This document shows positions 3,274-7,320 of a stretch of 32,000 bases of DNA, piece after piece; within the stretch, counting starts at the first letter, position 1, and every line of letters begins with the position of its first letter. The notes below the pieces were generated by a model. The model searched no databases. It saw only the letters and a list, made by a program, of their open reading frames with translations, and was not told where the DNA came from. Origin of the DNA: Methylophaga frappieri (GTDB lineage Bacteria; Pseudomonadota; Gammaproteobacteria; Nitrosococcales; Methylophagaceae); NCBI RefSeq assembly GCF_000260965.1, contig NC_017856.1, positions 60,001 to 92,000 of the forward strand, in the 5' to 3' direction. Made by a program: the position numbers and the translations under genes.

Positions 3274-4971
3274 TTAAAGCTGCCACCGAAAGCGTAAGTT
3301 AAAAATAGCACTTCGGTCGTCAGAGTCGATTGGTCTATCCCCGGTAGGTAATGAATATTCAAGATTGATACCGTAATGATCGTTATCAGAAAGCTCTATC
3401 CCTACTGTTGCTGAAGATAATGATCGTCTCGCGCCACCTGAGCGTAATTCAGTATGGGCTGTATCTAGAATAATATAAGGCTGAACTTGCTTGAGAAACC
3501 GCGTATTTAGATTATGCAAATATCTAAGTTCGACTTCACCAGCATAGCCTCGGTCACCTTGAGCCTGACCTTCCGAATAACCGCGTGCATAACGTGTACT
3601 ACCATATCTCGCCTGCTCTGCCGATGGTAACGAATCATCCGACCAATGACCATGTAAACGACTTTGGAGTTGCCATTTGGGTGCAAACCGGTAACGCCAG
3701 AAGACGGTTGTTGATAGCGTGGTAAAGTGAAGATCTTCAACACCACGTCTGCTGCTGCCGGCTTGTATCAGTCGATTTTCATTGGCACCCAGATCAACGC
3801 CTTGACGAACACTGAATTGCCATAACGTCACACTTTTGGGACTATTGAATTGCATATTGCTGAAAGCTTCCAGCGAAGAGTAAGTTAAATCCTTATTTAT
3901 TTCTGATGTGGTTGAAGCAACATTCAAATCATAGTCTGCCTCTTCATCAAGGTGATGCAGCTTTCCACCGACCCACCATGAATATTTCTTTTGTAATTCG
4001 ATTGGATAACTTAAACCAATATTGAACTGGTTACGTGTCTTATTTTCGACAAAATCAACAGGAATATCGGAAACAAAAAAACGATCATCGTTATCCGTTT
4101 TAAAGTGGCTCATCATCATATTGAGTTTCAAGCCATGAGAATTAAGGTGTTGTGCGTAATTAACCGAATAGAAACGATCAATTGTGTCATTCGGAATCAA
4201 ACCGCTCAGGGTTAACTGATCAGCATGCGATGTCATCGAATTTAATGTTAAAGAACCCAACAAACGGTTGGGTTCGTCACCTGCAGTGTCTAATGCAACA
4301 CCTGTTTTATATCGCTTCTTTTTCGTTTGCTCAACACGAATCGTTGTCGCACCGCTCGCCGATTGAGGCCGTGGCACTTTAATTCGAAATTGATAACCCG
4401 GCGTCGACTCAATTAATGCCGTGTAACGTTCGAAAGTTTTACGCGTTAACGGTTTTTCTGCCATTAACTGCGTAACATATCGTTCGATTCTTTTTTGAAT
4501 ATGGTCTTCTTCAACGTCAATTTCAGATCGGGCTAAATAACCCTCAACCAACACGAGGGAAAGCCGCCCCTTGGTTAGATCCTGCCCGGGTGGGATTGCG
4601 GCATAAGACAACGGATAACCGGCTTGAACATAGGCCGTGGTGATTTTATTAACAACTTGAAGTAACAGATCGCGTTGTGCCGTCTTACCGATAATGGGCT
4701 GTAACCACTCAGATAATGTTTCGAGGTCAAATACGGTACCGCCAATGATATTTACATCATTGATAACTTGCGCTGGTGCGTTTGTTTTGACTGATTCAGA
4801 TTCGGACGGAACAGAGGGTAATTCAGATTCGCTAGGAGAAATTTCAGGTGTTTTTTGAAAAGGTTCATCTACGATTAGAGGTGGCTCATTAGCGCTTACC
4901 GATTGGCCTCCTCCCATTAAAACCATTGCACTCATTACACTTACAGCCACCGTCCATTTTTTTTTAATCAT
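3274..4971 (-). CDS. ShlB/FhaC/HecB-family Omp85 outer-membrane transporter (TpsB-like, POTRA + 16-strand barrel)
   Basis: 565 aa. The signal peptide is MIKKKWTVAVSVMSAMVLMGGGQSVSA. The POTRA-like segment is NIIGGTVFDLETLSEWLQPIIGKTAQRDLLLQVVNKITTAYVQAGYPLSYAAIPPGQDLTKGRLSLVLVEGY. The conserved barrel motif is RYGSTRYARGYSEGQAQGDRGYAGEVELRY, and alternating beta-strand sequence runs to the C-terminus. Confidence 0.85.
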   Translation of the reverse strand: MIKKKWTVAVSVMSAMVLMGGGQSVSANEPPLIVDEPFQKTPEISPSESELPSVPSESESVKTNAPAQVINDVNIIGGTVFDLETLSEWLQPIIGKTAQRDLLLQVVNKITTAYVQAGYPLSYAAIPPGQDLTKGRLSLVLVEGYLARSEIDVEEDHIQKRIERYVTQLMAEKPLTRKTFERYTALIESTPGYQFRIKVPRPQSASGATTIRVEQTKKKRYKTGVALDTAGDEPNRLLGSLTLNSMTSHADQLTLSGLIPNDTIDRFYSVNYAQHLNSHGLKLNMMMSHFKTDNDDRFFVSDIPVDFVENKTRNQFNIGLSYPIELQKKYSWWVGGKLHHLDEEADYDLNVASTTSEINKDLTYSSLEAFSNMQFNSPKSVTLWQFSVRQGVDLGANENRLIQAGSSRRGVEDLHFTTLSTTVFWRYRFAPKWQLQSRLHGHWSDDSLPSAEQARYGSTRYARGYSEGQAQGDRGYAGEVELRYLHNLNTRFLKQVQPYIILDTAHTELRSGGARRSLSSATVGIELSDNDHYGINLEYSLPTGDRPIDSDDRSAIFNLRFRWQL

Positions 4972-5001
4972 GATCTAAAAATATCCCTTTTTTATCGGAG
5001 T

Positions 5002-5034
5002 GCGGCAGTCATGAAATCATGACTGCCGTTTTTT
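5002..5034. other. Intercistronic stem-loop between lipoprotein gene and transporter gene
   Basis: The stem GCGGCAGTCATGA / TCATGACTGCCG is followed by TTTTTT on the + strand. The flanking genes are transcribed on the - strand, where the A-run precedes the stem and no U-run follows. Confidence 0.4.
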
Positions 5035-5058
5035 CCGTTTCAGGATAACCGATTTTTC

Positions 5059-7320
5059 TTAAAATAATCCACCAGTCAATCCATTTAATAGGCCGCCTGA
5101 ATTGCCACCTTCATCTCCACCTTGACCACCGCCAAGAATGCCATCGACTGTGCCGACAACGTCGTCAACAACGCCACCGGTACCTTCATCTATGTCACCG
5201 ACTAAGCCGCCGGTAACATCGTCGACACCACCAACGACTTCACCAACTAGGCCATCACCAAAACCATCGCCGGTACCTGGCTCATCATTCAGACCGCCAA
5301 CTAAACCGCCAGTCACGTCATCAACGGTACCTACAACGTCGCCAACGATGCCTCCGGTACCGTCATCTATGTCACCGACTAAGCCACCGGCAACATCGTC
5401 GACACCGTCAACAACTTGCCCGACCAAACCGTCACCAAAACCATCACCGGTTCCAGGCTCGCCGGTCAGACCACCAACCAGACCGCCAGTCACATCATCA
5501 ACGGCAGCGACCACATCACCAACCACACCACCAGTGCCTTCATCCACATTAGTCACTAGGCCACCGGCAACATCATCGACGCCATCAACAACTTGACCAA
5601 CCAAACCATCACCAAAACCATCGCCAGTTCCAGGTTCGCCGGTCAGACCACCAACCAGACCGCTAGTTACGTCGTCAACCGAGGCAACTACATCGCCAAC
5701 CAGGCCATTACTTACCTCGTCTAATCCATCGGTAACATTACTTGCCAGCCCGCCGGTGACGCCATCAACGGTTGTCGTAACCCCACTGATGATGCCGCCA
5801 TTATCACCTGGTAATAAGCTTGAAGTCAGGCCATCAACGGTATCACCAATGTTGGCGACAAGTTCACCATTACCGGGCTGTGTAATGCCATCTATTAGCC
5901 CACCTTGATCGCCAAGGGCGCCACCAGTCAGACCATCCAGCTTTTCAGTTAAACCTAATAACAGATCGTTATCAGAATCAAGTAAACCACCCGGCAAATC
6001 ACTTAACCCATTCTCACCGAGTAGATCCGTGATACCTACTAACTCCAGACCTTCGCCTTCGGATGGACCTGTCGTGAGATTACCGTCAAGATTAACCAGT
6101 AAGTGACCAACCCCTTCAACGACACCGCCTGCATCGGCAAGTACAATGTTGTCAATGCCGCCAATTTTCTCACCTAGCACGACAACGGCAGAGCCAACTT
6201 TACCAACCAAGCCAAGCACTGCAGGCGTCACGACAACCGCTTGACCAACTGTTCTCACTGTGCCGTCAACATTAATGATGACAGGTCTAACAACAGCCGT
6301 TAATTTGGTTGAGAGTTGACCTAACTTACTGTTTTCATCAACCACCGACAAAGTTAAATAATCACCAAAGCCTGTCACTGCCAAGCCAAGCGTATCGACG
6401 GTACCGCCTAAGGTAGTCAGCACACCACTTTTTTCATCGATCTGTGCCAGAACAGGCATTGTATTGAGTGCGGCAACTGTTTGCCCAGAAGCGCTAACGA
6501 CTCTACCCGTATCTGAAATCAGACCTGTCACCCCTCCAAGGGTGGTGCCAATGGCATTATCATTTTCTGAAATATTCCCCAAACCATCATGCAAACCGGT
6601 GGATAAAGTGCCAACACCATTACCTGCGTGCGTCACAATATTCCCTGCACCATCGGTGACAGAGCCTATCATCGGCATTTCAGTTTGACTGATGGTTGCG
6701 CCTAGCACTTGAATGGTATTCGCGGCAGCGCCCACTGTATTGCTGGTATCTTGAACAGCGCCTTCAATGGCACTGGTTGATTGCTGATTATCACCGCCGC
6801 CGTTATCACCGCCGCCGTTATCACCGCCGCCGTTATCACCGCCGCCGTTATCACCGCCGCCGTTATCACCGCCGCCGTTATCACCGCCGCCGTTATTACC
6901 GCCACCGTTATTACCGCCACCGTTATTACCGCCACCGTTATTACCGCCACCGTTATTACCGCCACCGTTATTACCGCCACCGTTATTACCGCCACCGTTA
7001 TTACCGCCACCGTTATTACCGCCACCGTTATTACCGCCACCGTTATTACCGCCGCCGTTAATCAGGTCATCGCCTGAGTCAGCAATATCTATATCCGAAT
7101 CAGTGTCATTTGACGCATTATCGTTAGAATCAGTGTCAGTTGAATTATTTTGATCCTCAGTATCATTTGAGGCCGTATCGCCAGATCCTTCTTCGCTTGT
7201 TGTTGAGTCAGCAGAAGACGCATTCTTCAAACTTTTACTACTGCTTCCTGAGCACCCGCTGATGACAGTCAGTGCGACTGCCAAAACCATAACTTTCCAT
7301 AATTTATCCATAAGTGACAT
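5059..7320 (-). CDS. Repeat-rich acidic Gly/Asp/Asn/Val-rich lipoprotein (753 aa), unknown family
   Basis: The signal peptide with lipobox is MSLMDKLWKVMVLAVALTVISG|C, with Ser at +2. The protein has an S/T/D/N acidic linker, 18 x (N/D)NGGG, a long G/V/T/L-rich region, 3 x 59-aa repeats and a C-terminal ...GLTGGLF. It is the first gene of a minus-strand operon, directly upstream of the Omp85 transporter gene. Confidence 0.85.
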   Translation of the reverse strand: MSLMDKLWKVMVLAVALTVISGCSGSSSKSLKNASSADSTTSEEGSGDTASNDTEDQNNSTDTDSNDNASNDTDSDIDIADSGDDLINGGGNNGGGNNGGGNNGGGNNGGGNNGGGNNGGGNNGGGNNGGGNNGGGNNGGGNNGGGDNGGGDNGGGDNGGGDNGGGDNGGGDNGGGDNQQSTSAIEGAVQDTSNTVGAAANTIQVLGATISQTEMPMIGSVTDGAGNIVTHAGNGVGTLSTGLHDGLGNISENDNAIGTTLGGVTGLISDTGRVVSASGQTVAALNTMPVLAQIDEKSGVLTTLGGTVDTLGLAVTGFGDYLTLSVVDENSKLGQLSTKLTAVVRPVIINVDGTVRTVGQAVVVTPAVLGLVGKVGSAVVVLGEKIGGIDNIVLADAGGVVEGVGHLLVNLDGNLTTGPSEGEGLELVGITDLLGENGLSDLPGGLLDSDNDLLLGLTEKLDGLTGGALGDQGGLIDGITQPGNGELVANIGDTVDGLTSSLLPGDNGGIISGVTTTVDGVTGGLASNVTDGLDEVSNGLVGDVVASVDDVTSGLVGGLTGEPGTGDGFGDGLVGQVVDGVDDVAGGLVTNVDEGTGGVVGDVVAAVDDVTGGLVGGLTGEPGTGDGFGDGLVGQVVDGVDDVAGGLVGDIDDGTGGIVGDVVGTVDDVTGGLVGGLNDEPGTGDGFGDGLVGEVVGGVDDVTGGLVGDIDEGTGGVVDDVVGTVDGILGGGQGGDEGGNSGGLLNGLTGGLF
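5158..5688 (-). repeat. Three tandem 177-bp (59-aa) imperfect coding repeats in the lipoprotein C-terminal region
   Basis: The protein repeat V(A/G)xVDDVTxGLVGGL(T/N)(G/D)EPGTGDGFGDGLVGxVVxGVDDVxGGLVxxxDxGTGGxVxDV occurs 3 times (aa ~545-721). The copies are diverged at the DNA level. Confidence 0.85.
6791..7060 (-). repeat. 18 tandem 15-bp units encoding (N/D)NGGG
   Basis: 7 identical units tcaccgccgccgtta (6791-6895), then 10 identical units ttaccgccaccgtta (6896-7045), then 1 hybrid unit ttaccgccgccgtta (7046-7060). Every unit is in frame (5 codons). Confidence 0.97.

Follow-up and report, generated by a model that had tools for sequence, protein, structure and literature searches.

Two-partner secretion (TPS) is defined by the recognition of a TPS domain on a cargo that is not lipidated, and lipoprotein transport to the gram-negative cell surface is understood in part, the Slam, Bam-linked and LptDE-linked routes covering limited sets of cargos. 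Reviews of TPS and of type V secretion at large mention the lipidated proteins NalP, SphB1 and BcpO, and no TpsA that is lipidated or devoid of a TPS domain (PMC5422565, PMC8151025, PMC4104836). A separate line of research concerns proteins with the Collagen_mid domain (PF15984), a family known mainly from Burkholderiaceae (PMC10224339, PMC10303873): 75 "Bcc-CLP" proteins were described in silico as being mostly lipoproteins with flanking disordered tandem repeats and were proposed to be adhesins (PMC10224339), and BCAL1524 of Burkholderia cenocepacia was detected in outer-membrane vesicles, its deletion lowering autoaggregation and virulence in Galleria (PMC10303873). Here, we analyse a stretch of 32,000 nucleotides from Methylophaga frappieri (contig NC_017856.1, positions 60,001 to 92,000; this whole stretch is called the window below), in which the gene for a Collagen_mid lipoprotein is followed by the gene for a TpsB-type transporter of the Omp85 superfamily. 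The gene pair, the folds, the signals and the co-occurrence of the two genes are observed, and from these we infer transport, topology and function. On balance we lean towards the view that the two genes would form a type Vb-like module for the export and display of a lipoprotein adhesin, which would be a non-canonical cargo. A non-canonical route of surface display by way of a TpsB-like barrel had been put forward in an initial annotation of this DNA, and the lack of a TPS domain and the strong co-occurrence of the pair support that idea, export being the step that we deduce from them.

The two open reading frames (ORFs) share a strand and are separated by 87 nt, the transporter lying downstream, in agreement with the earlier placement of adjacent genes for 565-aa and 753-aa proteins in one operon. 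For the 565-aa protein, a signal peptide, a POTRA-like segment and an RGY motif in the barrel had been read from the sequence, and all of these stand. The protein matches the Pfam models POTRA_2 (E=3.6e-14) and ShlB (E=1.5e-14), each match exceeding its gathering score, and the AlphaFold2 (AF2) model computed with a 78-sequence alignment (predicted local distance difference test score, pLDDT, of 87.5; predicted template modelling score, pTM, of 0.82) contains two POTRA domains and a 16-strand barrel. In a Foldseek search the top matches of this model were CdiB (6wim, E=2.9e-23) and FhaC (4ql0/4qky), ahead of BamA and TamA; by sequence, the transporter is distant from the solved TpsB proteins, of which CdiB alone was matched (E=1.9e-5), and the identity to CdiB and FhaC is 14-16%. 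It is 100% identical to a protein of Methylophaga frappieri (P0097). The RGY motif falls at residues 463-465 in loop L6, and among the 78 transporter homologues R463 is nearly invariant and Y465 invariant. The N-terminal extension in front of the POTRA domains carries conserved EPP(L/F)IVD and (E)LP motifs in a Pro-rich segment that is unstructured in the AF2 model (4765-4890; alignment A4), and no helix is predicted for residues 21-70, the region of the FhaC-like H1 plug, with pLDDT values below 50 at residues 19-40.

The partner of this barrel has a lipobox that had been called clean and that holds up, with Cys23 as the lipid site, Ser at position +2 and GSSSKS thereafter. Composition and the program Tandem Repeats Finder (TRF) likewise bear out the acidic linker, the 18 copies of (N/D)NGGG and the three 59-aa repeats of the initial annotation. 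The "G/V/T/L-rich region" between these repeats is also present, and had gone unrecognised as the Pfam domain Collagen_mid, which it matches with 193.9 bits at a gathering cut-off of 31.1. Collagen_mid is the sole conserved and partly ordered module of the cargo: AF2 shows the full protein as mostly disordered (mean pLDDT 45.8) and predicts, as weak evidence, three helices (residues 184-286) and hairpins or strands (293-382) in the Collagen_mid part, at a pLDDT of about 60-70 and with no beta-helix. A true collagen was considered and rejected, as the repeat is a pentapeptide, NGGG(N/D), in the window and a tetrapeptide, GGGT, in Pseudomonas, and not G-X-Y. The Collagen model PF01391 gave no Pfam match at E<=10, and the label "collagen-like triple helix repeat-containing protein", which RefSeq attaches to some homologues, is unfit for the window protein. 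At 6696-7077, the 15-nt repeat also yields long spurious ORFs with YHRRR and VITA repeats in other frames and on the opposite strand, which are artefacts and not genes.

A domain of the TPS or haemagglutination type had not been found in the lipoprotein by the first reading of the sequence, and a comparison with hidden Markov models (HMMs) leads to the same result. PF05860 (Haemagg_act/TPS) gave no Pfam match at E<=10 for the window cargo and three distant homologues, and a search of every PDB chain sequence with the Collagen_mid profile, at the same threshold of E<=10, gave HR1 (E=0.14) as its single match and no TPS-domain protein. These searches bear directly on the idea that the pair is a classical two-partner system in disguise, with a TPS domain that would have diverged far enough to appear as Collagen_mid and a lipobox that would play no part or not be used. 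The idea draws on the top-conserved motif of Collagen_mid, N(P/D)N(A/P)(I/V/L)G(T/V)T, found at residues ~250-260 of the window protein as GNISENDNAIGTT, which is superficially like the NPNGI of TPS domains, and on the position of Collagen_mid N-terminal to long repeats. Apart from the two negative searches, however, the AF2 model has helices and hairpins and not a beta-helix (at low confidence), Collagen_mid can be as far as 161 residues away from the N-terminus, is duplicated (P0001/P0002) or absent in members of the family, and a lipobox is present in essentially all full-length members. We regard such a disguise as highly improbable. Examples of the motif are GTNPNAIGVT in Erwinia and GQNPNPIGTT in Ralstonia, as seen in L028, L030 and L111; its resemblance to NPNGI is a superficial one, no similarity to TPS domains having been found at the level of profiles in the Pfam and PDB searches.

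Co-occurrence of the two gene families, which the initial annotation had named as a way of checking its proposal, was followed from both sides and is strong from both. A query with the full-length cargo gave only 8 matches, low-complexity words dominating the selection of candidates, and for this reason the Collagen_mid domain alignment (A1) was used as the query. In a GTDB scan of one genome per species it found 18 loci in Halomonas, Methylophaga, Chromohalobacter, Billgrantia and, among the Alphaproteobacteria, Tepidicaulis, and a TpsB gene lies immediately downstream on the same strand in all 16 loci that have enough downstream sequence. A word-indexed search with the domain alignment gave few matches, and an exhaustive Collagen_mid profile search gave 83 clusters. 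At eight of the nine metagenome or assembly places looked up, a POTRA_2+ShlB gene directly follows the cargo gene, and at the ninth (L025) two tandem Collagen_mid genes are followed by a POTRA_2 protein that ends at the contig edge. From the transporter side, a metagenome scan with a 13-sequence TpsB alignment only, and so independent of the cargo, yielded 80 loci (29-61% identity), the upstream ORFs of which were scored with a Collagen_mid HMM built for this analysis: a Collagen_mid ORF lies directly upstream, on the same strand and 80-250 nt away, in 73 of the 75 loci with enough upstream DNA. In the two exceptions, L035 (2018-2821) and L101 (2945-4840), the upstream gene encodes a lipoprotein without Collagen_mid and with the C-terminal G/L/D/T repeats of the family (such as LLDPLVGGLL and GLLSPVTG), the L035 protein ending in ...VDDGLLDPLVGGLL as do the Methylophaga proteins. 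Since both loci keep the pairing, the domain is not needed for it.

The pair reaches well beyond the lineage of the window. TpsB homologues of about 30% identity from Erwinia amylovora, Pseudomonas hygromyciniae and an enterobacterial contig each stand after a Gly-rich Collagen_mid lipoprotein (Pfam E=1e-24 to 1e-41), and a tblastn search of a plasmid collection placed the TpsB gene on 158 replicons, of which 136 are megaplasmids of Ralstonia. The one Ralstonia record inspected, from R. wenshanensis, holds, in this order, an Flp pilin/CpaB cluster, two "collagen-like" lipoproteins and a ShlB/FhaC/HecB protein, with a Collagen_mid-like lipoprotein directly upstream of the transporter; two cargo genes per transporter occur in Ralstonia, in Tepidicaulis and in L025. 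No complete Escherichia coli genome carries the pair, and no homologue was found in this species. Altogether the pair is present in ~100 other loci from three proteobacterial classes, and probably in Burkholderia too: in B. cenocepacia the gene order is bcal1525 (flp)/bcal1524/bcal1523/bcal1522, where bcal1522 encodes a 562-aa outer-membrane protein (PMC10224339, Table 1) that, to judge from the layout of the locus, would belong to this TpsB clade.

Around the pair, the flanking genes vary by lineage, which makes the pair itself the conserved unit. Seven Methylophaga loci (L001, L002, L005, L010, L012, L032 and L034) have pnp upstream and ExbB-ExbD-ExbD-TonB immediately downstream, the enterobacterial loci are flanked by cysG...trpS, and a flank of binding protein and kinase is confined to the subclade of the window (3 loci). 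At least 25 loci, belonging to Chromohalobacter, Pseudomonas, Ralstonia and Cupriavidus, have genes for Tad/Flp pili beside the pair, which suggests a shared role in adhesion or aggregation. A conserved third partner was looked for among these neighbours and rejected, as ExbBD-TonB, the binding protein with its kinase and Tad/Flp are each specific to a lineage. As to the details of the neighbourhoods, the ExbBD-TonB genes may adjoin the pair by chance or may reflect a functional tie to energised transport, L005 additionally has a TonB-dependent receptor, and the Tad/Flp neighbours comprise Flp pilin, RcpC/CpaB, secretin, TadZ and an ATPase (L016, L018-L020, L022, L029, many of L082-L108, L101, L111 and L112).

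That no third gene is kept with the pair across lineages also speaks against a reading in which the lipoprotein would face the periplasm and assist or regulate the Omp85 protein as one of its subunits, similar to BamB-E or to BcpO in bcpAIOB, while the gene for the true substrate, such as a Tad/Flp component or an unlinked protein, would lie elsewhere. There is something to be said for this reading, given that Omp85 proteins commonly have lipoprotein partners (PMC4104836), that BcpO is an accessory lipoprotein within a TPS locus (PMC5422565) and that, within its subfamilies, Collagen_mid shows good conservation, with a mean column identity of 70%. The cargo, however, is large, highly variable in length (328-752 aa across the family), repeat-rich, poor in aromatic residues and Cys and faster-evolving than the barrel, all of which are traits of exported surface proteins rather than of compact subunits in the periplasm, and the BCAL1524 mutant shows an aggregation phenotype (PMC10303873). 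We therefore consider an accessory role improbable. The difference in rate is an approximate one, Collagen_mid being ~41% identical where the TpsB proteins are 70-90% identical, in a biased sequence that aligns imperfectly. A mirror-tree comparison of cargo and transporter gave a Pearson coefficient of 0.59 and a Spearman coefficient of 0.19, a moderate agreement that is not used as support.

The anatomy of the cargo was followed across 99-100 distinct mature proteins. A lipobox is present in 57 of 61 long family members and in 66 of the 73 upstream ORFs, the other seven being contig-truncated or fragmentary or, in the case of L080, missed by the script. The residue at +2 is Ser in 91 of 100 proteins and never Asp, and residues +3 to +8 are Gly and Ser (CSGSGGGS, CSSGGGGS, CSGSSSKS), so that the mature proteins begin with CS(G/S)n. 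Behind this start stands a tether of 4-161 residues, with medians of 72 for its length and 38% for its Gly content, the window protein having the longest; the Gly-rich repeats, which had been considered as a possible recognition motif, are thus not a conserved motif but a tether of variable length. One or two Collagen_mid domains come next, and then G/L/V/T/D repeats over 0-338 residues. In 71 of 99 proteins, the last 40 residues contain a G/L-rich motif (GGLLGGL, LNGLTGGL), often with a basic tail, and the C-termini of homologues vary (GGIL, GGLVNR, LLTPKQ, GGNKR and others). The terminal aromatic residue is not conserved, and the GGLF of the window protein, earlier suggested as a possible signal for recognition, is therefore not a signal of the family, in which only the G/L-rich patch recurs; a conserved aromatic C-terminal beta-signal was rejected on this account. 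The mature cargos (n=99) consist of 25% G, 15% T, 11% V, 10% S and 9% L, with 0.3% F, 0.1% Y and 0.0% W, and their Cys is essentially limited to the lipid site. This near-absence of aromatic residues and Cys would be expected if the polypeptide must stay unfolded to cross the outer membrane.

Taken as a path, the favoured export module would work in the following way. The cargo would be synthesised as a prolipoprotein, pass through Sec and be processed at Cys23 by the acylation pathway of Lgt, Lsp and Lnt, and Lol would place it in the outer membrane's inner leaflet. By the +2 rule of E. coli, the residue after the lipid Cys decides Lol sorting, and Ser at this position predicts delivery to the outer membrane. 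The FhaC/CdiB-like Omp85 partner would then bind the unfolded cargo, free of aromatic residues and Cys, via its two POTRA domains and bring Collagen_mid and the G/L/V/D repeats of the C-terminal part across the 16-strand barrel to the surface, where the N-terminal lipid and the flexible Gly-rich tether would keep the protein attached to the cell. At the surface, the cargo would serve as a flexible adhesin or autoaggregation factor, a role that the homologue BCAL1524 and the repeated adjacency to Tad/Flp genes fit. The steps up to Lol delivery would follow established lipoprotein biology, and translocation and the recognition signal are what we read into the sequences. Such a signal most likely resides in the CS(G/S)n tether, in the C-terminal G/L-rich repeats or in both, rather than in a TPS domain. 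As two loci pair without Collagen_mid, the tether and the C-terminal repeats are the more likely places, and Collagen_mid would be a functional module, self-associating or adhesive. We favour a dedicated translocase because the genes stay together, the translocase is of the FhaC/CdiB kind, the lipoprotein is predicted to be sorted by Lol, the cargo is disordered and free of aromatic residues and Cys, and aggregation-factor relatives stand beside pilus genes.

The tether bears on a serious alternative for the topology, a threaded, stoichiometric plug-and-barrel complex, to which we assign a low probability and which the accessory-subunit and cryptic-TPS readings follow as less likely still. Here, the Gly-rich tether would sit permanently in the pore or seam of the TpsB protein, one barrel per lipoprotein, with the lipid in the inner leaflet and Collagen_mid and the C-terminal repeats outside, as in RcsF-OmpA/BamA and LptE-LptD. 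A flexible Gly/Ser tether right after the lipid Cys is indeed the most universal feature of the cargos, the ratio of cargo to transporter genes is strictly 1:1 or 2:1, an Omp85-lipoprotein complex in the PDB, BamA-RcsF (6t1w), is among the Foldseek matches, and with no H1 plug helix predicted something else might fill the pore. Yet tether lengths run from 4 to 161 residues, and tethers of a few residues cannot span a barrel; the cases of two cargo genes to one transporter, known from Tepidicaulis, L025 and Ralstonia, do not suit a complex with one barrel per lipoprotein; and the hairpin in the intergenic spacer, which may be an attenuator or a stabiliser of the mRNA and could set the expression ratio of cargo to transporter, would suit a cargo made in excess of its transporter.

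Several points weigh against export and display by the dedicated module. The reviews of TPS and type V secretion hold no precedent for a lipid-anchored substrate that passes through a TpsB protein (PMC5422565, PMC8151025). In B. cenocepacia, 3 of 5 members of the Collagen_mid family have no adjacent TpsB (PMC10224339, Table 1), and for these unlinked members the transporter may work in trans, may be required only partly or may not be required. The presence of BCAL1524 in outer-membrane vesicles fits either side of the membrane. An H1 plug helix is not predicted in the model of the transporter, and the model of the cargo is of such low confidence (pLDDT 45.8) that we base no fold argument and no fold search on it. 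Lastly, the loci counted above are phylogenetically non-independent, and many of the enterobacterial metagenome loci are near-duplicates.

In the window, the pair opens a four-gene operon that runs along the minus strand from ~7400 to ~660 and encodes the lipoprotein, the Omp85 transporter, a binding protein and a histidine kinase (Table 1). The arrangement with the binding protein and the kinase is also found in L003/L004/L031; of the divergent genes, those for the receiver and the HTH_17/MerR-receiver proteins are kept in L003/L004, where the third divergent gene differs. Expression of the operon is probably controlled by the co-transcribed pair of binding protein and kinase together with the divergent response regulators, the Phosphonate-bd protein probably being a co-sensor for the HAMP-PAS kinase. 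A plasmid origin of the window was rejected, as PLSDB holds no near match to it.

Table 1. Positions of the genes and sequence features of the lipoprotein-transporter locus, numbered from the first letter of the window (aa, residues of the encoded protein; RBS, ribosome-binding site; SPase, signal peptidase).
Feature	Position	Strand	Basis or remark
Cargo gene, 753-aa Collagen_mid-family lipoprotein (mature 731 aa)	5059-7320	-	ORF and Pfam
Signal peptide and lipobox LTVISG↓C, lipid Cys23 (aa 1-23)	7252-7320	-	
Disordered linker at aa 24-86, acidic and rich in S/D/N/T (S 25%, D 22%, N 11%, T 11%)	7063-7251	-	AF2 pLDDT <50
Tether of 18 x NGGG(N/D) pentapeptides, i.e. (N/D/I)NGGG	6788-7060	-	TRF: 15-nt unit x 18.2 copies, 98% matches
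Collagen_mid domain PF15984, aa 219-417	6070-6666	-	Pfam E=3.4e-57
3 x 59-aa G/V/D-rich C-terminal repeats	5142-5679	-	TRF: 177-nt unit x 3.0 copies
G/L-rich C-terminal patch LLNGLTGGLF	5062-5091	-	Patch type recurs in the family, terminal Phe does not
TpsB-type Omp85 transporter gene, 565 aa	3274-4971	-	ORF, Pfam, AF2, Foldseek
SPase-I signal peptide aa 1-27 (SVSA↓NEPP) and Pro-rich N-terminal extension aa 28-69	4765-4971	-	
Two POTRA domains: POTRA_2 aa 70-144, second POTRA ~aa 145-200	4372-4764	-	
16-strand ShlB-type beta-barrel	3277-4347	-	Pfam, AF2
L6 loop ARGY (aa 462-465; RGY 463-465), then conserved GDxG	3577-3588	-	
Promoter-like site TTGACA-16-TAAAAT	7373-7400	-	11/12 match; ~50 nt upstream of cargo ATG; consensus match only
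RBS-like GGAGAGGA	Immediately before position 7320	-	Upstream of cargo start
12-bp GC-rich hairpin in the 87-nt cargo-transporter spacer	5002-5029		Strand not assigned
Phosphonate-bd-family periplasmic binding protein gene	2483-3286	-	Start overlaps tpsB stop by 13 nt
HAMP-PAS-HisKA-HATPase sensor kinase gene, last of the operon	710-2455	-	Pfam
Terminator-like hairpin after the kinase gene	658-687	-	
Divergent response-regulator receiver gene	7763-8155	+	Pfam
Divergent HTH_17/MerR-plus-receiver protein gene	8230-8841	+	Pfam
Divergent HisKA/HATPase kinase gene (second kinase)	8865-10043	+	Pfam

The remainder of the window holds genes of other kinds. A truncated DUF4198 gene (10152-10541) is followed by two transposases of the Tn3 family (DDE_Tnp_Tn3, 11545-13689 and 15916-18120) and a DUF4158 gene (15138-15893), the Tn3 genes flanking an insert of 62% GC with a PIN-domain gene (14327-14722); the region 10152-18120 looks like the scar of a mobile element beside the locus. 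On the minus strand, the adjacent genes for a SIR2_2-domain protein (19303-20343) and a HerA/DUF87 ATPase (18199-19293) resemble the SIR2-HerA pair of anti-phage defence. Further on lie genes for NnrS (24819-26021), a multicopper oxidase/cupredoxin protein (26058-27371), a GAF-sigma54 activator that resembles NorR (28161-29756) and a flavohaemoglobin (29905-31122), and the region 24819-31122 looks like an accessory cluster for nitric-oxide stress or denitrification.

Beyond the single locus, we tentatively raise the possibility, for which we would give slightly less than an even chance, that type V secretion has a branch not recognised before, in the form of a "lipoprotein two-partner" pathway that would be widespread in Alpha-, Beta- and Gammaproteobacteria and would use a signal other than the TPS domain. 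In such a pathway, a distinct TpsB clade would pick up an intrinsically disordered lipoprotein, delivered by Lol, at the periplasmic side of the outer membrane and present it at the cell surface, and the range of the pathway would span Burkholderia, Ralstonia, Pseudomonas, Erwinia and several Enterobacteriaceae. A TpsB clade whose sole constant partner is a lipoprotein without a TPS domain would widen the fields of two-partner secretion and of surface lipoproteins alike: POTRA/barrel translocases may accept a non-TPS signal, which leads one to ask how they would deal with a lipid anchor, and a further route for surface lipoproteins would stand beside Slam and the proposed Bam- and LptDE-linked routes. 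The family occurs in plant and animal pathogens, among them the Ralstonia solanacearum complex, Erwinia amylovora and the B. cepacia complex, and BCAL1524, which has reportedly been put forward for use as a vaccine antigen, would acquire a possible partner for its export. As a species without the pair, E. coli offers a clean host for reconstitution.

Among the known systems, the classical pairs FhaB/FhaC, CdiA/CdiB and ShlA/ShlB resemble the window pair in having two POTRA_2 domains, a 16-strand ShlB barrel and an RGY motif in loop L6, as well as adjacent, co-oriented genes and a repeat-rich, Cys-free cargo that is a probable adhesin. Unlike the classical cargos, that of the window has an SPase II lipobox and is predicted to be acylated, has no TPS domain and no predicted beta-helix and belongs to a family of ~330-750 aa, and its transporter, 14-16% identical to CdiB and FhaC, differs from these in having no predicted H1 helix. 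The Slam or type XI systems (TbpB, fHbp, HpuA) likewise rely on a dedicated outer-membrane barrel encoded beside the lipoprotein, but Slam combines a 14-strand DUF560 barrel with TPR and is unrelated to the Omp85 and POTRA architecture of the window. Moreover, Slam cargos are recognised via a folded C-terminal beta-barrel domain, which the window cargo does not have, and DUF560 is absent among the neighbours in the window (ShlB/POTRA_2, Phosphonate-bd, histidine kinase, response regulators). In RcsF-OmpA/BamA and LptE-LptD, a lipoprotein with a disordered linker is lodged in a barrel, which makes them possible models for the final topology; they are, however, not dedicated gene pairs of this type, and their barrels are not of the TpsB kind. 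A precedent for a lipid-anchored type V passenger that reaches the surface is set by the type Va proteins NalP and SphB1 (PMC8151025), in which the barrel is fused to the passenger and inserted by Bam/Tam, whereas the barrel of the window is the product of a separate TpsB gene.

The nearest described counterparts of the cargo are the Bcc-CLP proteins, which have been treated as stand-alone putative adhesins, with no neighbour identified as a transporter (PMC10224339, PMC10303873). Full-text searches, with subscription-only papers outside their reach, found no paper that links Collagen_mid lipoproteins to TpsB, and both gene families have so far been annotated generically; the link of PF15984 lipoproteins to TpsB is what would be new here. 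The Bcc-CLP proteins carry GTS repeats where the window protein has NGGG(N/D) pentapeptides, and they share with it the Pfam domain, the lipobox and the flanking low-complexity repeats, in a locus laid out as in Ralstonia and Pseudomonas.

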